Part shown: in pieces, positions 7,525 through 64,000 of the stretch | Numbering within the stretch: the first letter of the stretch is position 1 | Layout of the letters: every line of letters begins with the position of its first letter | Assembly: GCA_016204995.1 (NCBI GenBank) | Contig: JACQJR010000002.1 | Span: forward strand, 96,551-160,550 | Length of the DNA: 64,000 nucleotides | Origin: Candidatus Microgenomates bacterium | GTDB taxonomy: Bacteria; Patescibacteriota; Microgenomatia; UBA8517; JACQJR01 | Reading direction: 5' to 3' | Position numbers and translations under genes: made by a program | The notes under the pieces: model-generated | The model's input: only the letters and a program-made list of their open reading frames with translations | Databases searched by the model: none | Told to the model about the DNA's origin: nothing

Positions 7525-7594
7525 AAATTTAGGTTATTAGGTTACTGGGCTATTAGGCTCTTGGGCCTAATACTAATTATATCATAGTTGAAAA

Positions 7595-31573: not shown

Positions 31574-33637
31574 ATGCCACAAAAACTAATTGCCTTTTTC
31601 TACTACGCTTTGTTTTTCTTTACTCCGCTTTTATTTAATAAAGCCAACTCCGAACTTTTTGAACTGCCAAAAATGTACTTTGTCTGGGTAATTACTATTA
31701 TCATTGTCAGCTTGTGGCTAGTTAGAATAATCGCCGAAAAGCGAGTTATTTTTCAGCGAACATTTTTAGATATTCCTCTAATTTTATATCTAATATTTCA
31801 ATTAATTAGCACCTACTTTTCAATTGATCAATACACTTCTATTTGGGGATATTATTCCAGACTTAACGGCGGATTGATATCAACTATTAGCTATTTACTA
31901 CTTTATTGGGCCTATATTTCAAATTTAACCACCCAAAATACCCTATCTGCTCTTAAATTCCTGTTAATTTCTGGTTTACTAGTAGCTTTATGGGGGATTC
32001 CTAGTCATTTTGGCTATGACCCGAATTGTGTTCTTTTTGGCTACAACCTAACCACCAATTGCTGGAGCACCCAATTTGTACCAACTGAACGCATCTTTTC
32101 CACTTTGGGTCAACCAAATTGGCTGGCCAACTGGCTCGTAGCGCTCATGCCATTAACTTGGGCCATGTTTTTCACCTCTAAGATCAAAAATCTAAAATCT
32201 AAAATCTTTTATCTATATTTAAGTCTTATCCTAATAATAGCTATCATCTTCACCAGAAGTTCCTCCGGTTTTCTGGGATTAGTGGTAGCATTAGTAGTTT
32301 TTACCACCCCGCAAATTCTACACTTATTCAAGAAGGGGAAATTTCTTGTTTGGTTAACAATCTTACCCATTTTAACTATGTCTATATTTTTTGTGCAAAA
32401 ATTACCCAAAGTTGTCAATGGACTAAAATCTTGTACAGAAATTTTGACTTCTGAAGGCGAGTCGCACATTAATAGTAATATTACTCCTTCTAGTGACATC
32501 CGCTGTATTGTCTGGAAGGGTGCTTTTGATATATGGCGGCATTATCCATTAATTGGTAGTGGGCCGGAAACTTTTGCTTATTCCTATTACCAATTCCGTC
32601 CGGCTATCCATAACTTAACCAGCGAATGGGACTTACTTTATAATAAAGCCCATAATGAGTATCTTAATTTCTTGGCTAATAGTGGCCTAGCTGGTTTAAC
32701 AACATATTTAATTTTAATTATTATGGCTTTTTGGCTATTAGGCTCCTCGGCTCTTAGGAAAAACCCAACAGCCCTGCCTGCGCAGGCAGGCCAACGGCCT
32801 AATGCCCTAATAGCCTGGGGTTTACTCGCTGGTTTTGCCAGCCTTCTCGTCACCAACTTTTTCGGCTTTTCCGTCGTTGCCACTCAACTGCAATTTTTCT
32901 TATATCCGGCAATGGTGATAGGGCCACTGGGCTCTTGGGACGCTAGGCAATCGGACAATCAAAGGCCTAACGCCCTTCAAGTCATTTTAATTTTTCTAGT
33001 ATTATTTATTACCATCTTTCTGTTAGTTAAAATCTATCATTATTACCAGGCCGATCTTCATTACAGCCGGGCCCAAACTTTAGAAGATAATCAACAATAT
33101 GTGGATTCATTATCCGAAATTAGAAAAAGTCTCAACCTGCGACCAAATGAGCCATTATATAAAAACGAATTATCAGTTATTCTTTCATCGCTATCATTCT
33201 TAACTGCCAAAACCGATAGTGATCTTAGCGCCCAAATGACCAATATTGCTATCACATCTTCCGATCAAGCGCTAGCAACTTCGCCCTACAATCTTAATTT
33301 TCTCAAAAGTCGGGCCAGTATGTTTATTAAACTCTCCCAGCCGCAAGAGGCGATCAAAACCTTAGAATATGCCCAAAAACTCGTCCCTACCGAGCCCAAG
33401 ATTGCTTATAATCTAGGTCTAACCTATATACAACTGGATCAAAATGATCAAGCCATTCAGGAGTTTAAAAAAGCTACTCAACTTCGCCCCTTATACCGCG
33501 ACGCCTGGTTAGCACTCGGACTGGCCCAGTGGCAAAAAGGTGATAAAACTACCGCCCGCCATACTTTAAATTACATTTTGCAAAATATTGACTCCCAAGA
33601 TAAAGAGGTTCTAGAACAGCTCAAAAAGTGGAAATAA
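31574..33637 (+). CDS. O-antigen ligase (Wzy_C)-like polytopic membrane protein with C-terminal TPR repeats
   Basis: Many TM helices, a large periplasmic loop, C-terminal TPR-like repeats. Contains the in-frame palindrome CCTGCCTGCGCAGGCAGG (LPAQAGQ) and 9-mer repeat inserts. Confidence 0.5.
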   Translation: MPQKLIAFFYYALFFFTPLLFNKANSELFELPKMYFVWVITIIIVSLWLVRIIAEKRVIFQRTFLDIPLILYLIFQLISTYFSIDQYTSIWGYYSRLNGGLISTISYLLLYWAYISNLTTQNTLSALKFLLISGLLVALWGIPSHFGYDPNCVLFGYNLTTNCWSTQFVPTERIFSTLGQPNWLANWLVALMPLTWAMFFTSKIKNLKSKIFYLYLSLILIIAIIFTRSSSGFLGLVVALVVFTTPQILHLFKKGKFLVWLTILPILTMSIFFVQKLPKVVNGLKSCTEILTSEGESHINSNITPSSDIRCIVWKGAFDIWRHYPLIGSGPETFAYSYYQFRPAIHNLTSEWDLLYNKAHNEYLNFLANSGLAGLTTYLILIIMAFWLLGSSALRKNPTALPAQAGQRPNALIAWGLLAGFASLLVTNFFGFSVVATQLQFFLYPAMVIGPLGSWDARQSDNQRPNALQVILIFLVLFITIFLLVKIYHYYQADLHYSRAQTLEDNQQYVDSLSEIRKSLNLRPNEPLYKNELSVILSSLSFLTAKTDSDLSAQMTNIAITSSDQALATSPYNLNFLKSRASMFIKLSQPQEAIKTLEYAQKLVPTEPKIAYNLGLTYIQLDQNDQAIQEFKKATQLRPLYRDAWLALGLAQWQKGDKTTARHTLNYILQNIDSQDKEVLEQLKKWK
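32772..32789. repeat. 18-nt perfect palindrome CCTGCCTGCGCAGGCAGG in-frame in the Wzy-like membrane protein
   Basis: Encodes ALPAQAGQ. Flanked by GGCCTAATGCCCTAATAGCC 9-mer repeats. Confidence 0.6.
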
Positions 33638-33843
33638 TGACAAAAACTTTCCGACCTGCGCTTCGCCGAAGACTCAGGCAAGGCGAGTCGCAAATAAAAT
33701 GTCAAGTCTAAATTAGCTTTTAGACTTAGTTGAATTGTCTTGGTCAAATTATACTACTAGAGGCTTAAGAAGCAAATTTTGCCAAGCCCGCCAAAAGCTA
33801 CGCATTTTTGCGGGTCCGCCATAATACGAAGTTTTAGGCGGAG

Positions 33844-33936
33844 AAAAGGCACCTTGGGGAGATATAAAAAATTTAAATCGCGTTTTGCGACAAATTTATA
33901 TATCACCTTACGGTGCCTTTAAGTATTCAGTTGTGG
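33844..33936 (+). repeat. Element Y copy A (structured repeat AAAAAGGCACC...AAATATCACC..GGTGCCTTT + TATTCAGTTGTGG)
   Basis: Outer stem GGCACC/GGTGCC encloses an internal AT-rich stem and a TCGC-gtttt-GCGA hairpin. About 85% identical to copy E at 58149. Confidence 0.6.
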
Positions 33937-33957
33937 AAAGGTTAGGAAATGGTAACC

Positions 33958-34341
33958 CTAGTTAATGTACGGCCCGAACAGGTCTTTGATTTCCGGAGGA
34001 AGCTCGCAATCGCGCCAGCTGATGATCTGAGGACCGTAAGCCCTATCATGTCCGCAAACAATCCTCTTAGCTCTGCATACTCCAGATTTTACTTCATCCG
34101 GATGACTCCGCCACGTGCGAATTTCCACGAAAACCTGGTCCTGCCACCTGACTCCTAGGTTATGACAAATGGCTCGGATGACACTTTCGGCGGCGTTGGT
34201 GGTATTGGGCGCCTTTCTGGGAGGTGTTAAACCAGTCAGGTAAATTTTATTACCCTCCCGGTAATATGCTGCCGTGCCTTTGCTGCCATGAGGACAGAGG
34301 TAATCTACCTCGGAAAGTTGCCGCAGCATTTGGCCGACCAT
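33958..34341 (-). CDS. N-acetylmuramoyl-L-alanine amidase-like (phage T7-lysozyme-like) fragment, GC-rich
   Basis: About 50% GC versus a ~38% background. Strong RBS GAGGAGG. C-terminal H..(8-9)..C spacing and SWRDCELP resemble the Amidase_2 zinc site, but the N-terminal His region is missing, so it is possibly truncated. Confidence 0.3.
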   Translation of the reverse strand: MVGQMLRQLSEVDYLCPHGSKGTAAYYREGNKIYLTGLTPPRKAPNTTNAAESVIRAICHNLGVRWQDQVFVEIRTWRSHPDEVKSGVCRAKRIVCGHDRAYGPQIISWRDCELPPEIKDLFGPYIN

Positions 34342-34583
34342 GGTTCCTCCTCGTTAGCCCACCAAAAGGGGCTAAAAAAATTTTGACCAGTTAATGTCGC
34401 CCCAGAGAAAGAGAACCGCAATCCCCACTACCGCCAGAAAAAACTCCTTCACCTGCCTTTTCCACAATCTGTTAAAGTGCGCTACTCTAAACAAAAAACA
34501 GGCTTGCCTCGCGCCTGCGTCTATTTATAGTGCTACTACAAGGTAATTGTATCAAAAGCAAAATCAAAAAACAATTTGGCAAA

Positions 34584-34638
34584 GAAAAAGGCACCCCCAA
34601 AATGATTTGCTAAAAGCAAAATCACCTCAAGGGTGCCT
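34584..34638 (+). repeat. Element Y copy B
   Basis: AAAAAGGCACC..TTTGCTaaaAGCAAA hairpin..AAAATCACC..GGTGCC. Lies 3' of minus-strand ORF 34693..35034. Confidence 0.5.
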
Positions 34639-34692
34639 AAATAAGTCCACCTGACGGGAAAAACGAGTCATGCGCGGCTCCTCCTTAGTTTT

Positions 34693-35034
34693 TCAACTCA
34701 ACTTCCGAAGCACCTCCAGTGGAACAGCCTCCTTGCTGCAAGGATACCAGTCAGCCACCCACGGGTATAGATCAAGCGGGGAGTATAACTCCAGGCTTAA
34801 CCTGTTTGCTGCCACTCGCTGTGGTGGTACCTGACCATAGCCAGGAGGAAAATCAACCTCAATAAAGGTTACTTCTCTCCAGTTGAGCTGGGCTACAGAG
34901 CAGATACCTAGGACAATACCCTCTTGGCTCTGGCCGTCACGATGACGAAAGAAAACCAGCTGGTCTGGCCAAATGGTGTACTTGACACCTGCCAGTGGAT
35001 CCCGCTCCGGTAGCGCACGACGACTCCTGGTCAT
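34693..35034 (-). CDS. hypothetical protein (GC-rich, likely foreign)
   Basis: 113-aa ORF with RBS GGAGGG. Higher GC than the host genes. Confidence 0.4.
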   Translation of the reverse strand: MTRSRRALPERDPLAGVKYTIWPDQLVFFRHRDGQSQEGIVLGICSVAQLNWREVTFIEVDFPPGYGQVPPQRVAANRLSLELYSPLDLYPWVADWYPCSKEAVPLEVLRKLS

Positions 35035-35181
35035 TTTTCCCTCCTTCAGGAAAAACTAAAATACTTTTCCGCCAAGTTAAAGAGCAAACAGACCCAAAAA
35101 GGCTTGCTTTGTTGCCTTCGGCTGTTCTTAATTCCTAACCCATAGTTTATCAAACTATAAGCCAAAAAGCAAATTGGCCAA

Positions 35182-35240
35182 GAAAAAGCGCCGGTTGGAT
35201 CAATCTTGCAGATTATGCAAAATATCACCTTCCGGCGCTG
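35182..35240 (+). repeat. Element Y copy G (compensatory variant GCGCCGG/CCGGCGC)
   Basis: Same architecture, but the outer stem changes from GGCACC/GGTGCC to GCGCCGG/CCGGCGC. Inner TTGCA-gatta-TGCAA hairpin and the AAAATATCACC motif are conserved. Confidence 0.5.
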
Positions 35241-35424
35241 TATCCTTGAGACTTAATTGTACGGTGGTAAAACGAGATGCTTCTCCCCCTCCAGTTTCCA
35301 TAGTATTTTGTGGTTCCTCTGGAGATTTGCTAATAGCAAAACCACCAACCAGTTAAGTCTAACTGCCATAACTCCTCCTTTTAATGTTTTCTGATTACCA
35401 CTTGAACTGCGGCCCAGAGAGGTG

Positions 35425-35610
35425 TTACCACCACGACAAAATACTGCCTAGCATAAACAAACCAGTTACCATGAGTAACCCGGACACGATCGCCCCAAGG
35501 GGCCCCCAATTTCGAAGAGCATCGACCAAAAGAAGACCTCCCAGTACCACTAAAACAATAGCCATAGCGGTTACTCCAAAGGGATTCATTTTCTGTTCCT
35601 TCCTGTACAA
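35425..35610 (-). CDS. small membrane protein (GC-rich)
   Basis: 61 aa with 2 TM helices. RBS AGGAAGG. Confidence 0.4.
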   Translation of the reverse strand: MYRKEQKMNPFGVTAMAIVLVVLGGLLLVDALRNWGPLGAIVSGLLMVTGLFMLGSILSWW

Positions 35611-35639
35611 CTAATGTTAAGGTACCGCCCTCCGTAACT

Positions 35640-35700: not shown

Positions 35701-35841
35701 CTTGTTTTAGACCCAAAGATAGATCGGCTTTTGACCTCCTTTAAACCTAAATTATGCTTAATTAGTATTGTACCACTTAACTATGAGATAAGCAAATTTG
35801 AAGTTATTGCAATAAGAGAATAAACGACAGTAAAATTAAAC

Positions 35842-36456: not shown

Positions 36457-36550
36457 AGGAGTCCTGAAAAACAGGCGTCCTGCTTTTACCTTAAATATAA
36501 TATACCATTTGTCAATAAGATTTGCAAGTAGGAAAAGCAAATTGGCCAAG

Positions 36551-36620
36551 AAAAAAGGCACCTTGGGGTAGATAAATTAGAGAATAAGTTATCTGTTCTC
36601 GGTTTTCAGTGTTCAGAATT
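36551..36620 (+). repeat. Element Y copy C (partial/degenerate)
   Basis: AAGCAAATTGGCCAAGAAAAAAGGCACCTTGGGGTAGAT 5' part matches copies A and E. The 3' half is degenerate (TTCAGTGTTCAG). Confidence 0.4.
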
Positions 36621-36655: not shown

Positions 36656-37030
36656 CTAACTAAACTTTTTCCAAGTAGAGTGAAGCTTATTTAGCCTCCG
36701 GGAAAGTACCTTATATCTATCAATTAAGTCATCACAATCCTCTACTTTAATCCGAGTGAATGTTTTAGCTACGATTTTAATCTCCCGCAGATGGGTAATA
36801 ACTTCATCGGAAGAGCCAATGGCCATGGAAAGGAAGCGACAAAATTCGCGTGGAGAAGTTTTCTTACCGAATCCTTCGGCAATTTGAGGTGCAATCTTTT
36901 CCGCGGCTTCATTTAACTGATATCTCAATCTTTTGTAGATCGGTGGTAAGAGATTTGTTAAACTATAAACTGGATCAAGTAATTCTAAAGATAAATTGTA
37001 AACTTCCAAGTCTGTTACATCCTTAATCAT
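36656..37030 (-). CDS. four-helix-bundle protein (TIGR02436 / 23S rRNA intervening-sequence protein family)
   Basis: LEVYNLSLEL..LRYQLNEAAEKIAPQIAEGFGKKTSPREFCRFLSMAIGSSDEV matches the family pattern (QL.RAA.SI..NIAEG..R.S..EF..FL.IA.GS..E). 65 nt downstream of the ATPase, same strand. Confidence 0.65.
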   Translation of the reverse strand: MIKDVTDLEVYNLSLELLDPVYSLTNLLPPIYKRLRYQLNEAAEKIAPQIAEGFGKKTSPREFCRFLSMAIGSSDEVITHLREIKIVAKTFTRIKVEDCDDLIDRYKVLSRRLNKLHSTWKKFS

Positions 37031-37095: not shown

Positions 37096-39261
37096 TCATT
37101 CCTTTACCTTCCGGCCATAGCGTTCTCGAGATAAACGTTTGATCTTATCTTTATTCTCATTTTTCAGGCTCGGCAAGGGCAAAGTGTTGGCTGGGAAAGG
37201 CGAAGAGGTCATATTATCAATTGACAGCCGGGCAATAATTTCATATTTACCCAAAGCCACTAAATCATTTTCCGTATATAATTCGCCAAATTCTTTAGTC
37301 AAAATCCGGGCATCCGTCGCCCCTACCACGAATGATAAAAGCGTGCCGGCATTGCCAAAAATAGCCTTCTGAATCCCCTCTTCCAGTTGGCCAATATACT
37401 GATTGGCTAGGGTGAGCGACAGCCGATATTTGCGCGCTTCGGATAAGATTTTAATAAAGGAGCTTGTGGCAAAATTTTGAAATTCATCCACATAGAGGAA
37501 AAAATCCCGCCGTTCTTCTTCTTGAGTAAATGAACGGTTCATAGCGGCCAGCTGTAGTTGAGTAATAATCATCGCCCCCAGCAAAGAAGCATTATCCTCG
37601 CCCAATTTGCCCTGCGATAAGTTCAAAATTAAAATTTTACCTTCGTTCATAATCTGCTCAAGGTCAATCGTAGACTTGGGATTACCGACAATATTTCTGA
37701 TCATCTTGGAAGAAACGAACTGGCCAACCTTATTTTGAATTGGCGAAATGGCTTCAGTACGAAGGTTATCAGACATTCTTTCAAATTCCTTTTGCCAGAA
37801 GTTTTTCAAAACCGGGTCCTGCAAACGATCCACCACCCGCTCCCGGAAATTCCGGTCATTAAGCAAATTTAAAATATCCACTAAAGTACTACCTTCTACT
37901 TCCAAAAGGGTCAGAATGACATTGCGCAAAATATATTCCAGCCGTGGCCCCCAGCTCTCCCGATACAATTTGTAAAAAATGGAGATAATGCCCGAGGCCA
38001 CCAAATCTTTATGCTGGCGATTTTTAATTTCTAAAACGTTTAGAGAAAAAGGCCTTTCACTGTCAAAAGGTTCCAGATAAACTACGTCTGACACCCGCCG
38101 GGCCGGAATATAATCTAGAATGACCTCGGAGAGATCACCGTGCGGGTCAATAATGCCCACCCCTCGGCCCTTTCTAATATCATCAATCGCCATATTGGCA
38201 ATTAAAGTAGATTTGCCGGTGCCGGTTTTGCCGACAATATAGACGTGGCGGCGGCGATCAATTGTTTTGATACCAAAAATAGTTTCCTGATTTCTAAAGT
38301 TAGTCTTGGCAAAAAAGTTAACATCCTGCTTTTGCTCATCAGTCATAGCACTGGCTGCCGGCAAATTCTGCGGTGGCTCACCCAGTAAAGTCTTGCCCCA
38401 GGCAATATTTTTGATATTAGCCAGAAGTATGGCTGGCGGATGCCACAGACTGGCCAGTTCTTGGGCATTGAGAATTTGCTGCTGTCTTTCCAAGAAAGCC
38501 ACTTTTCGCTCGCGGATGCGAGCCAACAACCTGCCTTTGCGCAGTATTGGTCGCTTAAAAACTAACTGGTTGCCGCCGCCCAAAGAGAAACTGCCAAAAG
38601 TGCCGGCCAGATTTTGTAAAATTGGCTTGGTCGGCTGGCTATCAGAACCCGCCGCAATCCGAATCACCGCCCGCCCCCCTTGAAAAGAAGTTTTGCGTTC
38701 AATTAATATCCGCTGCGGATTTTGGCTGTAGCGATCAGAAGTCGGATCGTAAGTTTGGGTTTTAAGACTGGCCGTAGCTTTAGCTTGCCAGGGAAAAGTA
38801 GCCGGCGTCACAATAATTTGTACCATGATTTTAGTATCATTATCTTGCTTGGATAAAAAACCCAACAGTGAAGCCAAGGGGTCAACGTCGCGAAAATCCA
38901 AGTAGGTTTTAATCGGCAGATAGAAATAGGAGTTTAAGGCCAGCTCGCCTATTTCCAGATTTTTGGATTTCAAAACTTCAAAAAGGGGATCGGAGGTAGC
39001 GGCAATTTGAGCTTTGGGATAGGAAGAAGTGACTAAACTTTCCATGAAATTTTTGTGAGCATTAGTTGTAGTGACATAAAAATAAATAGTGGAATTAACG
39101 AGATAAATTTCAAAGCTAAAAGTTCCCTGCTTGGTAAACAGCCATTTCCAACCCGGCAAATACGGCCGCGATAAGACAGAGGCGAAGATTTGCGCGGCAC
39201 TTTCAGTAGGCGTCTCATCGTCTTTGGAAAGCTTAAGTTGAATATGGCTAAGCTGCGGCAT
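37096..39261 (-). CDS. FtsK/HerA/VirD4(T4CP)-superfamily P-loop ATPase, cytoplasmic (DUF87/type-IV-DNA-transfer-like)
   Basis: Walker A (GKTGTGKST), IIDPHGD motif, Walker B (FFLYVDEFQNF), arginine-finger/sensor region (ARKYRLSLTLANQ). About 330-aa N-terminal domain of unknown function. No TM segments. Confidence 0.55.
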   Translation of the reverse strand: MPQLSHIQLKLSKDDETPTESAAQIFASVLSRPYLPGWKWLFTKQGTFSFEIYLVNSTIYFYVTTTNAHKNFMESLVTSSYPKAQIAATSDPLFEVLKSKNLEIGELALNSYFYLPIKTYLDFRDVDPLASLLGFLSKQDNDTKIMVQIIVTPATFPWQAKATASLKTQTYDPTSDRYSQNPQRILIERKTSFQGGRAVIRIAAGSDSQPTKPILQNLAGTFGSFSLGGGNQLVFKRPILRKGRLLARIRERKVAFLERQQQILNAQELASLWHPPAILLANIKNIAWGKTLLGEPPQNLPAASAMTDEQKQDVNFFAKTNFRNQETIFGIKTIDRRRHVYIVGKTGTGKSTLIANMAIDDIRKGRGVGIIDPHGDLSEVILDYIPARRVSDVVYLEPFDSERPFSLNVLEIKNRQHKDLVASGIISIFYKLYRESWGPRLEYILRNVILTLLEVEGSTLVDILNLLNDRNFRERVVDRLQDPVLKNFWQKEFERMSDNLRTEAISPIQNKVGQFVSSKMIRNIVGNPKSTIDLEQIMNEGKILILNLSQGKLGEDNASLLGAMIITQLQLAAMNRSFTQEEERRDFFLYVDEFQNFATSSFIKILSEARKYRLSLTLANQYIGQLEEGIQKAIFGNAGTLLSFVVGATDARILTKEFGELYTENDLVALGKYEIIARLSIDNMTSSPFPANTLPLPSLKNENKDKIKRLSRERYGRKVKE

Positions 39262-39329
39262 TAACTACATTATATTACATTTTTAACAAGCTTGTCTCGC
39301 CGAAGTCCGGCGTAGACGGACGAAGGCGG

Positions 39330-39441
39330 AAAAAAAGGCACCCCGCGGGAAATATCTTGCGGTTAAGCAAAAATATCACCTTTGAGGTGCCTTGATACTA
39401 TTTTGAGCTTGCGAAAAACAAGCTTCGCTTATTCAGTTGTG
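39330..39441 (+). repeat. Element Y copy D
   Basis: AAAAAAAGGCACC...CTTGC-ggtta-GCAA...AAAATATCACC-tttga-GGTGCCTT, then an extra AGCTTG/CAAGCT hairpin, then TATTCAGTTGTG. Lies 3' of minus ORF 39429..39647. Confidence 0.5.
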
Positions 39442-39647
39442 ATGGAAGATTGTATCTCCCTTATCTTTTTGTCCAGCCGACTAAGACAGTCATTGGGCTT
39501 CTCGAGAGGGCATTCGCCGTAAAGGTGGTTCACCCACTCCATGTCATCCCGATCCTTCAACGAGATTACACTTACCTCCTTGACTGCGTAACCAGCAATC
39601 TCATCGACCTCCTTTTCTGTCAGACAAGCCTCAACTACCGAAGCCAT
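39429..39647 (-). CDS. hypothetical small acidic protein (GC-rich)
   Basis: 72 aa, RBS GGGAGGG. Confidence 0.35.
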   Translation of the reverse strand: MASVVEACLTEKEVDEIAGYAVKEVSVISLKDRDDMEWVNHLYGECPLEKPNDCLSRLDKKIREIQSSITTE

Positions 39648-39685
39648 AATTCCCTCCCTTACGAATACACCGAAACCTTTTCCTA

Positions 39686-39898
39686 CTAGGAACTACTCAC
39701 CAGCAACTTCTCTGCCGCAACTTTCTCCTTATTAGATTTCTGTAGGGCGGCAAATAGGAAGCTGAACGGAGTATGCCGCAGATACACGTAGTATTGGGCC
39801 GTATCCATGTCTTCAGTGAGGCCCCATTCGGTCCTCAACAGATGCTGCATGGCTGCCTGACAGCGGGGTTGATGCGAACAATACCAGTACACGTTCAA
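39686..39898 (-). CDS. hypothetical small protein (GC-rich)
   Basis: 70-aa ORF, TTG start with an adjacent AAAGGAGG. The start is uncertain. Confidence 0.25.
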   Translation of the reverse strand: MNVYWYCSHQPRCQAAMQHLLRTEWGLTEDMDTAQYYVYLRHTPFSFLFAALQKSNKEKVAAEKLLVSSS

Positions 39899-40149
39899 CC
39901 TCCTTTTCGACCAGATAAAGCCTTAGGGCATATTTACCCCGAACTCCTCCTAATCAGGCTTGCGGCTCGCTTGGTGAGCTGGAAAAACGTGATGGCCAGT
40001 ACCGCAATGACAAATATCACCGTCAGTATCGCTATGGACAGGATCACCAGGACCACGAAGAGGAAACCCATCTCCATGTTCAATATCAAATCCTCCAGCA
40101 TTTTTCTCCTTACAACTGAAATGTCAACGTGCCTTTGACCTACCTAATC

Positions 40150-40230: not shown

Positions 40231-40365
40231 TATTCTTTGAAAAAGCGCTTTTAAGACTTGCTTATTGCCCTAAGCCTCTTTTCCCAAGTTATGCTATTAT
40301 ATTACAAACTATGGGATTATTCAAAAAATTAGCAATTAGCAAGCAAAATTGGTAAAATACATGCT

Positions 40366-40959: not shown

Positions 40960-41004
40960 GCAATTCAGGGCGTTAGGACATTAGGTATTTAGGCTCTTAG
41001 GCAT

Positions 41005-41367
41005 ATGAGCGATTTTACCAAATTAAAAATATGGCAGAAATCTCACGAATTATCATTGGAGGTTTATCATCTTACTGCAAAACTACCTAAAGAAGAAACT
41101 TTCGGCTTAATGTCACAGTTACGCCGAGCAGCAGTATCAGTAGAATCTAATATTGCCGAGGGCGAATCAAGATTTAGTAGTAAGGATAAACTAAATTTCT
41201 TTATCCAAAGTCGCGCATCTATCGGCGAGGTCCAGACACAATTACTTTTAGTAGCTGATTTATATCAGCAATTAAAGAGTAAAGCTTTACAATTAAAAGA
41301 AGAATATACTAATCTTTATAAACAAATAAATAGTCTTGTTTCTTATAGAAGAAAAAACGATTTATGA
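41005..41367 (+). CDS. four-helix-bundle protein (23S rRNA IVS protein family)
   Basis: KLKIWQKSHELSLEVYHLT..QLRRAAVSVESNIAEGESRFS family pattern. Inserted between def and fmt. Confidence 0.65.
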   Translation: MSDFTKLKIWQKSHELSLEVYHLTAKLPKEETFGLMSQLRRAAVSVESNIAEGESRFSSKDKLNFFIQSRASIGEVQTQLLLVADLYQQLKSKALQLKEEYTNLYKQINSLVSYRRKNDL

Positions 41368-42431
41368 ACCCTAACAGCCCAAGAGCCCTGCCTGCGCAGG
41401 CAGGCCAACAGCCCAAGAGCCCTCCTCTCGTTTTTTTCAGCACACCAGACTATGTGCTGCCAGTATTGGAACAGCTAAAAAATGCCGGTTATGAAATTGC
41501 AGCTATTGTTTCCCAGCCACCCAAACCAGTTGGCAGGAAACAAATTTTAACACCAACTCCTACTGCTGTTTGGGCTAGCCAAAATAACATCCCCAATCTT
41601 GATGCTTCACCTAAAACTTTAATTGAACCTTTACAAAAAATTGGCGCGACCATTGCCATTCTGGCTTCCTACGGCCGGATTATTCCGCAGGCAATTATTG
41701 ATGTTTTTCCACAAGGCATCTTAAATATTCACCCCTCACTTTTACCAAAATTTCGCGGTGCTTTACCGGTAGAAGGAGCATTGGTAGCAGGCGAAAGCGA
41801 AACCGGCGTGACTATTATCAAATTGGATGCCGAAATGGATCATGGTCCCATTGTTTCTCAAATTACCGAAAAAATTAATAAGGATGACACTAAAATTACT
41901 TTAAGAAAAAGATTATTTGAAAAAGGGGCCGCTGAATTAATTAAAGTCTTACCAGACTACTTAGCTGGCAAAATCGCACTGCAAGAACAAGATCACACTC
42001 AAGCTACTTATACCACTTTGATGAAAAAAGAATACGGCTTTATCCCGCCGCAATATTTGGAAGCTGCATTTAAAGGTGAGACTTTAGAGGAAAAATGGCC
42101 CATCCCATTCATAAAAGACTTTTCCCTAGTACCTAGTGCCTATTCCCTTCACAATTTTATCCGTGCTATTAACCCCTGGCCCGGAGCATACACTGAAGTA
42201 ATACTACCAATAAATACCAATACTACCAATAAGCAAAGCTTGGCCCTTCGGGCTAATTACCAATCAACTAAAAAAAGATTAAAAATTCTGAAATCTCACT
42301 TAGAAAACCTAGTAGCCCAAGAGCCTAATGCCCCAACAGTCCACTTAGTGCCTGACTTGGTCCAATTAGAAGGCAAAAATCCCGTTTCTTGGCAACAATT
42401 TAAACAAGGCTACCCCAACTTCACTTTCTAA
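41364..42431 (+). CDS. fmt: methionyl-tRNA formyltransferase
   Basis: Formyltransferase core (NIHPSLLPKFRGALPV) and a C-terminal Fmt domain. The N-terminal extension contains the CCTGCCTGCGCAGGCAGG palindrome (ALPAQAGQ). ATGA overlap with the upstream gene. Confidence 0.85.
   Translation: MNPNSPRALPAQAGQQPKSPPLVFFSTPDYVLPVLEQLKNAGYEIAAIVSQPPKPVGRKQILTPTPTAVWASQNNIPNLDASPKTLIEPLQKIGATIAILASYGRIIPQAIIDVFPQGILNIHPSLLPKFRGALPVEGALVAGESETGVTIIKLDAEMDHGPIVSQITEKINKDDTKITLRKRLFEKGAAELIKVLPDYLAGKIALQEQDHTQATYTTLMKKEYGFIPPQYLEAAFKGETLEEKWPIPFIKDFSLVPSAYSLHNFIRAINPWPGAYTEVILPINTNTTNKQSLALRANYQSTKKRLKILKSHLENLVAQEPNAPTVHLVPDLVQLEGKNPVSWQQFKQGYPNFTF
41387..41404. repeat. 18-nt perfect palindrome CCTGCCTGCGCAGGCAGG in-frame at the fmt N-terminus
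   Basis: Encodes ALPAQAGQ. Flanked by CAGCCCAAGAGCCC repeats. Confidence 0.6.
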
Positions 42432-48159: not shown

Positions 48160-48720
48160 ATGAAGATTAAAGATTTTCGTGAGCGACCGCTCCTATTCAT
48201 TGATTTAGAAATGTCCGGCCTTAATCCTTTGATCCATGAAATTTTAGAAGTTGGGGTATTAGTAGTAGATGGCAAGACTTTGGGAATAAAAGCCGAGTAT
48301 GAAGCCAAAGTCAAACCAGAACATATTGAAACTGCCGATCCGCTGGCCCTGCGTATCAATGGCTATAAAACAGAAAACTGGAAAGACGCTAAACCATTAA
48401 AAAAAATTTTAGAAGATTTAAATAAACTGGCCCCCGAGGGCATGATTGTTGGTTTTAACGTCGTCTTTGACTCCATGTTTTTAGATTTGGGATTTCGTAA
48501 ATTTAATATCAAGCCCAACTTTGATTACCATATTTTAGATGTCTTAAGTTTGGCCTGGGCTTATGTTTTACCTGACAGTAACGTCCACGAAGTAAAACTA
48601 TCAACTCTTTGTAAACATTTTGGCATTGAGCGAAAAGAAAAACACCGGGCGTTGGCAGATATTAAGGCGACATACGAGCTTTTTACAAAGCTCATGGGCA
48701 TTAGGCAATTGGGTAATTAG
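48160..48720 (+). CDS. DEDDh 3'-5' exonuclease (DnaQ/epsilon-like)
   Basis: Exo I (LFIDLEMSGLNP..EILEVG), Exo II, Exo III (HRALADIKATYELF). Confidence 0.75.
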   Translation: MKIKDFRERPLLFIDLEMSGLNPLIHEILEVGVLVVDGKTLGIKAEYEAKVKPEHIETADPLALRINGYKTENWKDAKPLKKILEDLNKLAPEGMIVGFNVVFDSMFLDLGFRKFNIKPNFDYHILDVLSLAWAYVLPDSNVHEVKLSTLCKHFGIERKEKHRALADIKATYELFTKLMGIRQLGN

Positions 48721-48982
48721 GCTATTAGGTTTTCTGACCTAGGAGCCAAAGAGCCTAACGCCCTAAAAGCCTATTACTCCAGCTTTCTACAAATTCTTTC
48801 CGATCGCAAATAAAACAAATAAAATGTCAAGTTTCAGGTGTCCTACCTAAACCACCTCTAAGGTGATTAATCCTTGACACCTATTTAACCAAAGAAAAAA
48901 GCGCTCTTGGTATAAAACCCATCATTAAAAAATGATGTCCGATTACTCGGCAAGAGCGCTTACTAATTTAGTTGCGAGATTG

Positions 48983-56064: not shown

Positions 56065-56145
56065 AAAGGCTCCTTGGCTCTTAGGCTACTAGGCTCTTTG
56101 GTAAAATTCTTCCTAATGACCTAATAGCCCAATGCCCCAAAAGCC
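56065..56145. repeat. tandem degenerate 9-11-mer repeats (GGCTCTTAGGC / GCCTAATAGCC family)
   Basis: GGCTCCTTGGCTCTTAGGCTACTAGGCTCTTTGG...CCTAATGACCTAATAGCCCAATGCCCCAAAAGCC. The same family occurs at 7528-7575, 32735-32765, 40963-41002, 44822-44892, 48698-48775 and in-frame in def, fmt and the Wzy-like gene. Confidence 0.5.
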
Positions 56146-57429: not shown

Positions 57430-57561
57430 TTTCCTATTGTAGACTATCGGTCAACCTCTGTCAAAAATTGAATCAATCTTTTAGATCCATTTGGATTGTT
57501 CTGTGAAGATTATATCACCAGAAGTTTAAAAAGCAAATCAAATTTTTAATTTTCCATTTAT

Positions 57562-57595
57562 TGACACTTTGTTTCCGATCGGAAAGAAAGTGTCA
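57562..57595 (+). promoter_or_regulatory. 34-nt near-perfect palindromic operator TGACACTTTGTTTCCGATCGGAAAGAAAGTGTCA
   Basis: One mismatch between the arms. Lies between the PaaX-like stop and the uppS promoter region (extended -10 TGATATAAT on the minus strand). A half-site CGATCGGAAAGAAAATGTCA recurs at 58127-58146. Confidence 0.5.
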
Positions 57596-58111
57596 TCACT
57601 CCCTCTCTGCTACTAAGACTTGCACCCACTCCTCAACTTCCAATTCCTTCACAAATTCTCTTAATGGCTTTTCAATATTTCTTTTAGTCGCCCAAACACT
57701 CTTTTGCCAGCAGACAAAACCCCAAGTTTTTAGTCGCCATCTTAATATATTTCGCACTCTCTTTTTATCCTCTGGTATATCAAAAATAACTACTCGCCAT
57801 CTACCATCCCAGTTAGATTTCTCATCCTTTAGAAAACGAGTTAATTTTCTACCATCTTTTGTTAGTTTTAAAATGATTTTTTCTGCTCTCTTACTTTCTT
57901 GCGCTATTAAACCCCTTTGCCGCAATCTCCGAATGGCATGACTTAAGGCTGTATCGCTAATTGGTCGGGGGTAATTGCCATAAACATCATAAATCCATCT
58001 TCTTAAATCAACAGAAGAATTTACTACTAGTTCTCCACCCTCTACTGCTTTTTCTAAAACAAGTAATAGAAGATTGGGAATTGAAACTGTTTCCTTTTTA
58101 TTACTAGCCAC
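57596..58111 (-). CDS. PaaX-like winged-helix transcriptional regulator
   Basis: N-terminal wHTH and C-terminal WDGRWRVVIFDIPE...FVCWQKSVW PaaX-family motif. Start moved to GTG 58111, because a TTGACA-N17-CATAAT promoter lies inside the longer ORF, so the transcript is probably leaderless. Confidence 0.5.
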   Translation of the reverse strand: MASNKKETVSIPNLLLLVLEKAVEGGELVVNSSVDLRRWIYDVYGNYPRPISDTALSHAIRRLRQRGLIAQESKRAEKIILKLTKDGRKLTRFLKDEKSNWDGRWRVVIFDIPEDKKRVRNILRWRLKTWGFVCWQKSVWATKRNIEKPLREFVKELEVEEWVQVLVAERE

Positions 58112-58118
58112 TTGACAA

Positions 58119-58147
58119 ATTATGTGCGATCGGAAAGAAAATGTCAA
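58119..58147 (-). promoter_or_regulatory. sigma70-like promoter (TTGACA-N17-CATAAT) of the PaaX-like gene, overlapped by an operator half-site
   Basis: The -35 is embedded in the CGATCGGAAAGAAAATGTCA half-site, which suggests autoregulation. Confidence 0.4.
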
Positions 58148-58148
58148 G

Positions 58149-58250
58149 AAAAAAGGCACCTTGGGGTAGATATAAAAAATTTAAATCGCGGTTATGTGAC
58201 CAATTTATATATCACCTTTAGGTGCCTTTAAGAACATATTCAGTTGTGGG
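58149..58250 (+). repeat. Element Y copy E
   Basis: Near-identical to copy A. Lies 3' of minus-strand gene 58269..58667. Confidence 0.6.
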
Positions 58251-58268
58251 AAATTTGGGTATTGGTTA

Positions 58269-58667
58269 TTACCGCCAGCGGTTATATCTCCATCGAGGAT
58301 CATACACCCTCAAAAGGGAGGCTACGTAAAAGGTCAATATCCAACCACCGAGACCAGTTGCTACTTGTAGCCAGCTGTTTTTGACTTGCAGAGCCGCAAA
58401 GGTAGATAGTAAAAACATCGCCATGACTATTATAAGCTTTCCTACATTCATCCACTCCCCTTTGCTTCCAACTGGAACCTGCAAATCCTGTTTCTTAAAG
58501 CTAATCCTCTTCTGGCAATCTTCGCAGATGGCGATGTGAACAGTTTGATCTGCTAGATCAAAACGCCGGGCCAGGTCAATGGCAACAGCCGAAGATTCCA
58601 GCAATGCTCGGGCACGCTCCTCCACTGCCTCATCTGCCAGATGATAAACAACAGTCCTATCCGTCAT
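58269..58667 (-). CDS. membrane protein with HxxxCxxC (ZAS-like) motif, GC-rich
   Basis: HIAICEDC fits the zinc anti-sigma H-x3-C-x2-C pattern. Two C-terminal TM helices. RBS AAAGGAG. GC-rich relative to its neighbours. Confidence 0.35.
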   Translation of the reverse strand: MTDRTVVYHLADEAVEERARALLESSAVAIDLARRFDLADQTVHIAICEDCQKRISFKKQDLQVPVGSKGEWMNVGKLIIVMAMFLLSTFAALQVKNSWLQVATGLGGWILTFYVASLLRVYDPRWRYNRWR

Positions 58668-58869
58668 GACTTTCTCCTTTGCCCTGACTTTGCTCTGACA
58701 TCCATTGAGCTACAGACCGGCGATCGCCGCACTGCAAACAGACAATGTCCACGCCCAAACCGTCATCCTCTTCAAAAAGATCGCCGCCGCATTTCTTACA
58801 TTCCCTTAACGACCGTAATCGTTGATCACTATTTTCATTATCTAGATTTCGCCCAAGCACTTCAGACAT
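58657..58869 (-). CDS. zinc-ribbon small protein, GC-rich
   Basis: CKKCGG...CLQCGD two CxxC pairs. Start set at the internal Met with a strong AGGAGG. Confidence 0.4.
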   Translation of the reverse strand: MSEVLGRNLDNENSDQRLRSLRECKKCGGDLFEEDDGLGVDIVCLQCGDRRSVAQWMSEQSQGKGESHDG

Positions 58870-59050
58870 GTCGCCCTCCTTAATTTCCACTAACTGAATG
58901 TTAACGTGCGTTTTGAGTCACAAAGACTAGATACGCGCAAAATGTATCTACCTATGACACAACAAGGCAATTATATACCCATCCAACCTTATTTCCAATA
59001 AATGGGTATATACGAGTACTTTTAGTTAAAAACTAAAATAAGACGATATA

Positions 59051-61284: not shown

Positions 61285-62529
61285 CTATTTTAGCCATCTT
61301 CCTTTAAGTTTTGCGTATTGGCCGTCGTTAATGGCTGTTCTTACTTTTTCCATCAGCTTAGTAAAAAAATAAACGTTATGATACGTGGCTAGTCGGTAAG
61401 CTAATAGTTCGCGGGTGCGAAAAAGATGATTGATATAGGCTCGAGTATAATTCTCACAGACCATACAAGCGCAATTTTTGTCTAAAGCCAGACTAGAACT
61501 TGCCCATTGGCCTTTGGTGATATTAAAGCGAAAACGGTTTTTCAGATTACCTATTGGCGGCGAAACAAAAATCTCACCCATCCTTGCCAGTCGCGTTGGT
61601 ATTACACAATCAAAGGTATCAATACCTAAACTTATGATATTTAAGATATCATCAATTTCACCTACTCCCAACATATGACGTGGCTTTTGCGGATCACTAT
61701 TAGTAGTAGTTAGCTCTACTATCTCATACATATTTTGCTTGTCTTGATGTGCTCCGCCTAGAGCCACGACAGAAAAATTTTGATCTACAAATTTGATGGA
61801 TTCCAGCCTTAAATCGGTAAACCGGCCGCCGTGCGTTACTCCATATAACAACTGGTCTTTTTTATGATGGGCTTTTTTAGACCTGGCCAGCCAGCGATTA
61901 GTCCTTTCAAGCGATTTTTTAGTTTCTTCATAATTGGCCCTTGGCGACTCTAAATCGTCAAAGCCCACTATTAGGTCCGCCCCTAAATCTTCTTGAATTT
62001 TAATAGAACTTTCAGGCGTAAGCGAAGTTAACTTGCCGTCAAATGGAGAACGGAAAACTACGCCGCGATCATTTATTTTAATTACCATTGGCGCTATATC
62101 CCCGCCTCGACTTGCCGTCTTCGGCGAGGCGGGTCGCTCTCGTGGACCATCTTTTCGTCCAGAGGACGATCGGCCTTTGGCCGACAAAAGCTTAACATCG
62201 CCGCCGATGCCTAAAGAAAAAACCTGAAATCCGCCGCTATCTGTCATAGTCGGCCTGCCTGCGCAGGCAGGTCCATTCCAAGCCATAAATTTAGCCAAGC
62301 CGCCTTGTTTTTTAATGATCTCCTCGCCCGGGCGAAGGTGCAGATGATAGGTGTTAGCCAGGACTGCTTCTACTCCGATCTCATTTAAATCTTGACTGTC
62401 CAAAGCCTTGACTGTGGCCATGGTGCCAACCGGCAAAAAGGCCGGAGTATGAATTATGCCATGGCTAGTTTTAATTTCACCAGTACGAGCTGTACCTTTA
62501 CTGCGTTTTAAAATTTTGAAAGTTGCCAT
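61285..62529 (-). CDS. tgt: queuine tRNA-ribosyltransferase with in-frame GC-rich inserts
   Basis: LPVGTMATVK, DSGGFQ, zinc site (C.C..C). The palindrome CCTGCCTGCGCAGGCAGG sits just before DSGGFQ, and a ~100-nt GC-rich multi-palindromic insert encodes GRSSSGRKDGPRERPASPKTASRGGD. Confidence 0.85.
   Translation of the reverse strand: MATFKILKRSKGTARTGEIKTSHGIIHTPAFLPVGTMATVKALDSQDLNEIGVEAVLANTYHLHLRPGEEIIKKQGGLAKFMAWNGPACAGRPTMTDSGGFQVFSLGIGGDVKLLSAKGRSSSGRKDGPRERPASPKTASRGGDIAPMVIKINDRGVVFRSPFDGKLTSLTPESSIKIQEDLGADLIVGFDDLESPRANYEETKKSLERTNRWLARSKKAHHKKDQLLYGVTHGGRFTDLRLESIKFVDQNFSVVALGGAHQDKQNMYEIVELTTTNSDPQKPRHMLGVGEIDDILNIISLGIDTFDCVIPTRLARMGEIFVSPPIGNLKNRFRFNITKGQWASSSLALDKNCACMVCENYTRAYINHLFRTRELLAYRLATYHNVYFFTKLMEKVRTAINDGQYAKLKGRWLK
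62254..62271. repeat. 18-nt perfect palindrome CCTGCCTGCGCAGGCAGG in-frame in tgt
   Basis: Read on the minus strand it encodes GPACAGR, immediately N-terminal to the catalytic DSGGFQ. Confidence 0.6.
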
Positions 62530-63280: not shown

Positions 63281-63300
63281 AAGCCTTATTGTAGCTAAGA

Positions 63301-63395
63301 AAAAAGGCACCGTCCAGAGATAAAATTGCTTATAAAGCAAAATATCACCTTTTGGTGCCTTTGCGACCCATATTCGGTTGTGTATTCAGTTGTAA
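63301..63395 (+). repeat. Element Y copy F
   Basis: AAAAAAGGCACC..TTGCTT-ata-AAGCAA..AAAATATCACC-tttt-GGTGCCTTT, then ATATTCGGTTGTG and TATTCAGTTGT tails. A GC-rich minus-strand micro-ORF follows. Confidence 0.5.
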
Positions 63396-64000
63396 AGAAA
63401 CTAGTCTCGCTGTTTAGCAGGCCATTCACCTTGCAAGGCCACTTCAAACCTCCTTGAATTACCACCAGATGCCAGTGATGTAATTGACCACCCACAGCTC
63501 GCCGCCAAGAAGTAGCAATGCGGCCCCAAAAATAAGAGCACTCCTCATATTCCTTCCTCTAAATCTGAATTTTTTCCAAAAAGTACGCAACAGCTAATGT
63601 TGCTCTCTTTGCGGAAACTACAACCGAATTTTCAAGGTGCTCCATTCAGTTTTACTGGATTGTCGCGAGACTTGCTTTTTGTCTTTAACCTCCACTAAAA
63701 CTACTCTCTTTGAATTACTAAAGGATATGCAAAAATCATTTTTGTGAGATACATTTTACTATATTTACCATTAATTTACAACTATAAGATAAGGTTTTGA
63801 CTATGGAAGATAGATTATCCATCTACAATCAATCTCTAGTCACAACTGCCCAGATAAATTTCAGAAGAGATAGTTGGCGCCCAATTCTCCATGGTTCTAA
63901 AATTAACCTAAATAGCCATTCTAAACCTAAATTACGCAGCCACAGCGGGGCACGGGGTACGCGGCCGGCTAGATAATCAAAGCTACCGCCAACCACCATT

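Follow-up and report, generated by a model that had tools for sequence, protein, structure and literature searches.

The type I loci of E. coli were first noticed as repeated, partly tandem, intergenic loci. Mobile insertion cassettes have inverted repeats around cargo genes and lack a transposase, phage morons are independent insertions of a promoter, a gene and a terminator, and the core of integron cassettes follows the consensus RYYYAAC/GTTRRRY. Repetitive extragenic palindromic (REP) sequences, bacterial interspersed mosaic elements (BIMEs) and miniature inverted-repeat transposable elements (MITEs) have been reviewed (PMC3184786), and in the hok mRNA a tac-fbi stem between the 5′ and 3′ regions locks the full-length transcript in an inactive state (PMC9841398). 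Here we describe a family of hairpin repeats, and the small gene units that they follow, in a window of 64 kb, which is the whole stretch of DNA analyzed; it comes from an uncultured Candidatus Microgenomates bacterium of the candidate phyla radiation (CPR), and all evidence stems from this one clonal genome. The element shares features with each of these systems, and is best described as a lineage-specific combination of known things: a family of intrinsic terminators and a 5′–3′ fold-back of the mRNA.

Six units on the minus strand have the same order, namely predicted promoter, leader with a 5′ box, orphan open reading frames (ORFs), 3′ box, hairpin and U-tract. We favor, with a slightly better than even chance of being right, the reading that hairpin and boxes form a lineage-specific terminator and 5′–3′ fold-back frame around self-contained units of orphan genes. 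A sigma-70-type promoter of each unit would start a transcript whose leader ends in the 5′ box, near the first ribosome-binding site. The hairpin and U-tract would end this transcript as an intrinsic terminator, as their anatomy, strand and position suggest, and the 3′ box would pair with the 5′ box in a closing helix of 9–17 bp just below the terminator, thereby holding the coding part of the mRNA in a panhandle.

The hairpin family consists of six full copies (A, B, C, E, F and G) and a half copy, D, all of them on the minus strand; a preliminary description of this DNA had already placed them, in a single orientation, at positions 33844, 34584, 35182, 36551 (partial), 39330, 58149 and 63301, and this was borne out. 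Together with their U-tracts, and each standing at the end of the unit of the same letter, the full copies span 33840–33920 (A), 34582–34639 (B), 35179–35240 (C), 39329–39393 (E), 58147–58228 (F) and 63298–63361 (G). Their common layout, in plus-strand letters, is an A-run, GGCACC, a variable inner hairpin, (A)ATATCACC, 2–5 nt and GGTGCC, and the pattern AAGGCACC-N20-50-CACC-N3-6-GGTGCC has four matches vs. none expected. Two sequences of the consensus proposed in the preliminary description are not general parts of the family. AAGCAAATTGGCCAAG follows C and D, has a variant form after B, stands about 55 nt away in the case of A, and is absent in E, F and G. Copies A, E, F and G all have TATTCAGTTGTG, of which G carries two; C has a degenerate version, and in B a different sequence takes its place. 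A further hairpin, of the CCGCC...GGCGG type, lies past the U-tracts of copies A (33788–33843) and E (39296–39329); in copy A it forms a 55-nt insert between the main hairpin and the AAGCAAATTTTGCCAAG module.

Each full copy folds as one long interrupted hairpin of 50–75 nt with two internal loops, with predicted energies of -25 to -36 kcal/mol and z-scores of -3.3 to -6.8 with respect to shuffled sequences. Among the individual values are -30.8 kcal/mol and z -5.8 for copy A, and z -6.0, -3.8, -4.6 and -3.3 for C, E, F and G, respectively; copy B is fully paired, with five G-U pairs, and reaches -31.1 kcal/mol on the minus strand vs. -22.1 on the plus strand. The minus strand also folds better in C, E and G, and the plus strand slightly better in A and F. 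The G+C-rich outer stem is AAGGCACC/GGUGCCUU, the conserved inner motif AAGGUGAUAU provides the 5′ side of the second stem, and the apical stem varies, being UUGC..GCAA in B, C, E and G and a longer GUCGC..GCGAU in A and F, while pairing in every copy. Copy C has GCGCCGG/CCGGCGC as outer stem, a change that had been taken as fully compensatory; compared with the other copies, it amounts to one exchange of an A-U for a G-C pair, plus the loss of one outer pair and the gain of two inner ones, i.e., a single compensatory pair and a two-pair register shift.

A covariance model, as suggested in the preliminary description, was made from the six full copies aligned on the minus strand, and the window was scanned with filters off. 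Over the whole 64 kb only these copies matched, all on the minus strand and with 41–77 bits (67, 41, 59, 72, 69 and 77 for A, B, C, E, F and G, respectively). Since they match by construction, the informative part of this result is that the window holds no other match. Half copy D (36549–36575) retains the 3′ arm and the U-tract and lacks the 5′ arm; it scores 12 bits (36549–36564) and shows no fold when read on the minus strand. Its 28 nt at 36547–36574 are identical to copy F, with divergence beyond. The copies do not derive from one segmental duplication, a possibility raised earlier, because the genes that flank them are unrelated.

On the minus strand, the stem base GGUGCC (GGCGC in copy C) is directly followed by a U-tract of 4–7 U, with 5–7 U within 8 nt, in all six full copies, while on the plus strand only 2–4 T lie past the hairpin. 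The copies are situated 15–95 nt past the stop codons of minus-strand ORFs (copy A, for instance, 37 nt past the stop of the 127-aa ORF at 33958–34341). Both anatomy and position support the earlier proposal of a minus-strand intrinsic terminator, which we retain as a prediction. The element shares with intrinsic terminators, including the repeat families that double as terminators, the G+C-rich stem base, the immediate U-tract, the location just past a stop codon and an A-run on the 5′ side able to pair with the U-tract. It differs from them in its length of 50–75 nt with two internal loops and the conserved inner motif, in its coupling to a 3′ box with a matching counterpart in the 5′ leader, and in its distribution, because a single sequence family occurs at six unrelated orphan units and at no housekeeping operon of the window. 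In particular, the covariance model found no hairpin at any of the housekeeping minus-strand operons at 1–33 kb and, as many genes there lack it, the hairpin is not a general terminator.

The hairpin could also belong to what follows it, as a 5′ attenuator or riboswitch-like leader of the next minus-strand gene, instead of being the end of the preceding unit. Copy G ends 17 nt before the ATG at 63283, and in all six copies the CACC of the 5′ arm can pair with the GGUG of the conserved AAGGUGAU (CGCC/GGUG in C), which gives a weak option resembling an anti-terminator. Nevertheless, this alternative helix has only 4 bp and no Rfam family matches the element. Beyond copies A and D come plus-strand genes in convergent orientation, which leaves nothing downstream to regulate, and past B, E, F and G the next gene is preceded by a separate promoter-like site, which overlaps the U-tract or is found between it and the gene. 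Besides, the downstream genes are unrelated (a nucleotidyl-transferase after G, a PaaX-like gene after F and a coupling-protein-like ATPase after E). We thus consider a leader function very unlikely.

The second signal is a pair of boxes. The preliminary description had remarked that the motifs around the hairpin exceed what a terminator needs, and this proved correct: the distal box CACAACUGAAUA is one half of a two-part signal, and is complementary to its partner, a box in the unit's own 5′ leader. The 5′ boxes, with consensus GCACnUURAC-AUUCAGUUGU, were located by an upstream search for complements of the CACAACUGAAUA region and by reading of the 5′ regions; the consensus of the 3′ boxes is ACAACUGAAU. 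All boxes are on the minus strand. In unit A, the 5′ box (GCACUUUAACAGAUUGUGGAAAAGG, 34450–34485, an nhmmer match) faces a 3′ box (CCUUUCCACAACUGAAUA, 33924–33945) that is a perfect complement of 34459–34467 over 9 nt and forms 10 bp in the minimum-energy fold. Both boxes of unit B are divergent, namely the 5′ box (GCUCUUUAACUUGGCGGAAAAG...UUAGUUUUUC, also recorded as GCUCUUUAAC..., 35050–35085) and the 3′ region (UUUUUCCCGUCA, GAAAAACUAA, 34650–34692), which contains a 10-nt perfect complement to the leader of the unit (p = 0.003). The remaining 5′ boxes were profile matches. Unit C pairs GGUACCUUAACAUUAGUUGUAC (35598–35628) with GUACAAUUAAG (35252–35266) over 10 bp, including one G-U; in unit E, the 5′ box (AAAGGCACGUUGACAUUUCAGUUGUA, also recorded as AAAGGCACGUUGACAUUUCAGUUGUAAGGAG, 40105–40136) stands directly before the ribosome-binding site, and the 3′ box (CACAACUGAAUA, 39430–39441) overlaps the stop codon of the 72-aa ORF and forms 9 bp in the minimum-energy fold. 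The 5′ box of unit F (GCACGUUAACAUUCAGUUAGUGGAAAUU, also recorded as GCACGUUAACAUUCAGUUAGUGGAAAUUAAGGAGG, 58879–58913) abuts the ribosome-binding site, and its 3′ box (AAUUUCCCACAACUGAAUAU, 58236–58255) forms 10 bp in the minimum-energy fold. Finally, unit G has a 5′ box (GCACCUUGAAAAUUCGGUUGUAG, 63610–63643) and two 3′ boxes in tandem (UACAACUGAAUA and CACAACCGAAUA, 63371–63394), with a 10-nt perfect complement. A profile built from the 5′ boxes of units A, C, E, F and G matches those five sites only, all on the minus strand; here again, the informative part is that there are no further matches in the window.

The longest perfectly complementary runs between 5′ and 3′ boxes are 9, 10, 6, 9, 8 and 10 nt, i.e., 8–10 nt in five of the six units, and a Fisher combination of shuffle tests over the six gives a p of about 2e-5. 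Individually, the local alignments of the two ends of a unit lie each about 2 standard deviations above shuffles, so that the signal emerges from the units as a class and not from any one of them. Changes in one box are matched in the other: CGG/CCG in unit G corresponds to CAG/CUG in the others, and unit C is one nucleotide short on both sides, with a G-U pair and GUAC/GUAC. An extension, GUGGAAA/UUUCCAC, is common to units A and F. Joining each 5′ box to the 3′ box of its own unit yields the maximum number of base pairs, which only 2 of 120 permutations reach; these counts were made on a manual alignment because MAFFT misplaced the indels in the joined boxes. A matrix of duplex energies between the 5′ and 3′ regions of own and other units was uninformative, the core box being common to all units. 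When whole transcripts (448–962 nt) were folded, the helix between boxes appeared in the minimum-energy structures of A, E, F and G, with 7.3–10.2 expected bp, and the terminator hairpin stayed formed in all six units. The complementarity and its matched changes are thus present in the sequence and in the folding predictions, from which we infer the function of the panhandle; this would most likely be the protection of the mRNA, or of both its ends, or a control of its processing.

Two other roles for the boxes were considered and rejected. In the first, the closing helix would mask the ribosome-binding site, but this is inconsistent across units. Long-range antitermination, by pairing of the GCAC of the 5′ box with the 3′ arm of the terminator, does not fit copy C, whose stem is changed while its 5′ box is not, and it is also ruled out by a terminator that is formed in every predicted fold.

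The units resemble hok and similar type I toxin mRNAs in these respects: a segment of the 5′ untranslated region pairs, here in silico, with a segment of the 3′ untranslated region beside a 3′ terminal stem-loop, small hydrophobic peptides are encoded, and the loci are repeated and intergenic. This raises the possibility of loci akin to type I toxin-antitoxin systems of the hok/ldr kind, in which the mRNA for a hydrophobic peptide would be silenced by 5′–3′ fold-back and an antisense RNA antitoxin is postulated. Long structured leaders with 5′–3′ complementarity would agree with it, as would the partly tandem arrangement of the loci and the first ORF of units A (in our own reading), C, E and G, which codes for a hydrophobic peptide of 26–55 aa with one or two membrane spans. 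However, B and F have no hydrophobic first peptide, and several units add unrelated soluble ORFs of 68–132 aa. The 5′ box is internal to the leader, 60–170 nt downstream of the predicted transcription start, while the partner in hok is the 5′ end itself. Promoter and terminator scans found no conserved antisense (plus-strand) promoter/terminator pair, nor an antisense RNA, in the units; no sequence similarity to hok was seen, and E values of up to 5 brought no match to a toxin or antitoxin family of Rfam. Moreover, a general block of translation is not supported, as masking of the ribosome-binding site is predicted for A and F only. A toxin-antitoxin function therefore appears decidedly improbable to us.

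Likeness to DNA repeats had been suggested in the preliminary description, which named the ends of IS200/IS605 elements, REP/BIME elements and attC sites; our results do not support any of them, and we give this almost no credence. The copies are indeed structured, intergenic and in the same orientation, and the small unrelated same-strand ORFs between copies A to C, each followed by a structured repeat with a conserved fold, resemble a cassette array. Additionally, the start and the end of a unit carry short, mutually complementary sequences, in the manner of the core and inverse core of a cassette, and CACAAC/GUUGUG is one position off the integron core. But in the units the complementary boxes flank the genes and not the hairpin: CACAAC and its partner GTTGTG (GUUGUG in the RNA) are 240–700 nt apart, with the genes between them, and do not meet at the base of one hairpin, whereas a single folded attC site has R″ (RYYYAAC) at one end and R′ (GTTRRRY) at the other. 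The stem base of the hairpin, AAGGCACC/GGTGCCTT, lacks RYYYAAC/GTTRRRY. The units have predicted promoters, whereas integron cassettes are mostly without and stand near an IntI integrase with attI and Pc, and a U-tract on one strand only marks a transcriptional role. REP sequences are 20–40-nt palindromes associated with a RAYT (an HUH Y1 transposase) and at high copy number throughout a genome; the present hairpins measure 50–75 nt and occur six times in 64 kb, always with the same kind of unit and strictly one-to-one with promoter, leader and terminator. IS200/IS605 elements carry TnpA or TnpB between a left and a right subterminal hairpin and lack terminal inverted repeats; here there is one hairpin per unit, the units have inverted boxes past which homology extends, and only orphan or housekeeping genes separate the copies. 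Finally, Pfam scans covering nearly all ORFs of at least 130 aa in the window returned housekeeping genes and no transposase, integrase or other tyrosine recombinase, reverse transcriptase, HUH/RAYT protein (PF01797 type) or TnpB.

With a predicted promoter and its own ORFs, each unit would be self-contained. A promoter scan predicted minus-strand promoters for units B (TTGGCC-16-TATAGT, 35154–35181), E (TTGAAT-17-TATAAT, 40296–40324), F (TTGGAA-17-TATAAT, 58970–58998) and G (TTGTAA-17-TAAAAT, 63753–63781); possible promoters for C (TTGCTT-17-TACAAT, with TG before the second hexamer, 35767–35795) and A (TTGTTT-17-TACAAT, 34546–34574), also on the minus strand, were identified by eye below the threshold of the scan. 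The first, -35-like hexamer of the unit B promoter, TTGGCC, lies in AAGCAAATTGGCCAAG, which had previously been counted as part of the element. The leaders are 90–200 nt long and partly homologous, with common blocks such as AAGCAAGYCU; about 100 nt can be aligned between those of C and E, where the stem of one hairpin is flipped (GUAG..CUAC vs. CUAC..GUAG). Unit G also has, in its leader past the 5′ box and ahead of the 29-aa ORF, a perfect 6-bp hairpin followed by a U-run (63587–63603, GCAACAUUAGCUGUUGC) that may be an attenuator.

Units C, B and A follow each other in direct succession. On the minus strand, unit A (33958–34452) encodes a possible 26-aa hydrophobic peptide (34372–34452, with a GTG start, in our reading) and the 127-aa orphan (33958–34341); unit B, a 113-aa orphan (34693–35034); unit C, a 54-aa membrane peptide and a 37-aa ORF (35256–35589); unit E, a 55-aa membrane peptide followed by ORFs of 68 and 72 aa (39429–40101); unit F, a 70-aa zinc-ribbon-like protein and a 132-aa orphan (58269–58869); and unit G, a 29-aa hydrophobic peptide, MRSALIFGAALLLLGGELWVVNYITGIWW (63459–63548). 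These ORFs, of 26–132 aa, have strong ribosome-binding sites and are mutually unrelated. Among 5.8 billion proteins the 127-aa and 132-aa products matched only themselves, and among 1.8 billion cluster representatives the 113-aa product matched itself and, weakly, two repeat proteins; no unit protein had a match in Pfam, PHROGs or PADLOC.

Units with their own promoter, ORFs and terminator, of atypical G+C and placed between unrelated genes, are reminiscent of phage morons. They differ from these in the lack of a phage context (PHROGs gave no match), in the common family of leaders and terminators and in the complementary 5′ and 3′ boxes.

The unit layout might alternatively reflect mobility at the DNA level, the inverted boxes being terminal inverted repeats of non-autonomous cargo elements. 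Such elements would have inserted into the 5′ arm of an existing scaffold of promoter, leader and hairpin, with duplication of a GCAC(C) target, by means of an enzyme encoded elsewhere. Each unit can in fact be written as a direct repeat (the GCAC core), an inverted repeat, unrelated orphan ORFs, an inverted repeat and a direct repeat, and the G+C content of the cargo ORFs (0.43–0.54) is above the 0.40 of the whole window. Units A, B and C are in tandem, while F and G lie among housekeeping genes. Half copy D breaks in the middle of the hairpin after the 28 nt shared with F, suggesting recombination inside the elements, and matched variants in both arms would be expected under common descent as well. 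MITEs and mobile insertion cassettes, like REP/BIME elements, share with the present family the short structured intergenic repeats, or the inverted repeats around cargo without a transposase inside. Nonetheless, while copies of a MITE or mobile insertion cassette resemble each other only up to the outer edge of their terminal inverted repeats, the conservation here continues past both boxes, taking in leader blocks on the 5′ side and the hairpin on the 3′ side. Unless the same scaffold was hit by every insertion, the repeated unit thus does not end at the boxes. Scans with the hairpin model and the 5′ box found no empty scaffold and no insertion at another place in the window, where no transposase, integrase or HUH gene was detected either. 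The GCAC(C) direct repeat flanks both boxes in every unit, but it is 4–7 nt long and equally similar between units. Public Logan contigs of the host, which are short and end at repeats, are all identical to and colinear with the window, and among them there is no inversion or excision junction. An apparent junction at window position 35774 was an artefact, as positions 1–19 of Logan contig L002 are the Nextera mosaic-end adapter (GATGTGTATAAGAGACAG). On balance, insertion as mobile cassettes seems unlikely.

Several observations weigh against the favored reading of a terminator and fold-back frame, starting with the hairpin itself. The covariation in the six-copy alignment, which the preliminary description had proposed as a test, is not above chance (81 of 500 column shuffles reach the observed value); it is thus not demonstrated, and the case for the structure rests on folding energy and on an apical stem that varies but always pairs. 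The hairpins are much longer and more interrupted than textbook terminators, which are compact (stem of about 5–14 bp, loop of 3–8 nt), and a simple scan for consensus terminators misses the full hairpins and reports only inner sub-hairpins of A and E. As for the boxes, their helix is weak in, or missing from, the structures predicted for B and C. The predicted accessibility of the ribosome-binding site is lower in A and F, unchanged in B, C and G and higher in E. Positions of wobble and mismatch in the box helix favor neither strand, so that the matched inverted repeats could have been inherited at the DNA level instead of being selected as RNA, and sequence alone cannot separate the two readings. 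Nor does the RNA model explain why the 5′ arm of the hairpin and the GCAC core of the 5′ box are alike, in the manner of a direct repeat. Termination, start sites and 5′–3′ pairing are predictions and, with six copies from one clonal genome, the case is suggestive, not established.

Relatives of the element were sought in diverse collections. Rfam returned no family at the gathering threshold or at E up to 5, but only tRNAs and chance matches. Exact patterns had 14 single matches, in unrelated phyla, among one genome per GTDB species, those read being coding sequence and none a true copy; four matches in JGI metagenomes, of which the two read were marine coding sequence; and, in the IMG/VR viral collection, no match for one pattern and a single chance match for the other. 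Because exact patterns fix the stem sequence, diverged relatives could escape these scans. Blast searches of units A to C against phages and plasmids gave no match. The window is a piece of core chromosome, with genes for tRNA synthetases, topoisomerases, ribosomal proteins, MreB, a penicillin-binding protein, a sigma factor and NusG, among others. The best non-self match of its tRNA-guanine transglycosylase has 60% identity, which indicates that the databases contain no close relative of the host, and the loci of three relatives identified through this enzyme showed no synteny and no match to the covariance model.

The genes that follow copies E and G on the minus strand have -10-like hexamers that end 7–8 nt (E, 39259–39298) and 4–5 nt (G, 63281–63316) before their ATG, which suggests that the coupling-protein-like ATPase and the nucleotidyl-transferase may be expressed from leaderless mRNAs. 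Similar palindromes (TTGACA..CGATCGGAAAG..TGTCAA) at 58112–58148 and 57561–57595 flank the PaaX-like/helix-turn-helix gene at 57596–58159 (minus strand); the former overlaps the strong promoter of this gene (TTGACA-17-CATAAT), and both are likely operators. A second repeat family, with arms of 8-nt periods (TTAGGCNN) inverted around the palindrome CCCTGCCTGCGCAGGCAGGCC, is present at 918–943, 7529–7569, 32714–32813, 40965–41013 with 41373–41416, 48693–48769, 56065–56143 and 62250–62275. One of its copies is inside the ORF of a 687-aa O-antigen-ligase/TPR protein, without breaking the reading frame, and a pair flanks a 120-aa ORF (41005–41367) between def and fmt whose product resembles, by eye only, the 23S rRNA intervening-sequence (IVS) protein. 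This second family looks like a palindromic insertion of the IVS type or of the type of Rickettsia palindromic elements (RPE). The ORF at 36656–37030 matches Pfam PF05635, the family of 23S rRNA intervening-sequence proteins, to which the Avd proteins of diversity-generating retroelements are related.

The element might, finally, represent a CPR system that has not been described, although this seems doubtful to us. It could be an expression frame with a closed panhandle for unrelated orphan genes of small proteins, which would generalize the fold-back of hok, or the docking site of a site-specific cassette system that inserts cargo flanked by inverted repeats into a terminator hairpin via a recombinase encoded elsewhere. 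Gene regulation in CPR/Patescibacteria is nearly unknown, and much of the gene content that has no explanation in these bacteria consists of orphan small proteins. An RNA frame around such genes would offer a simple sequence handle for finding units of orphan genes, as well as a testable case of end-to-end pairing of an mRNA outside the toxin systems of enterobacteria, while the DNA-level reading, if true, would point to a new route of cassette acquisition.

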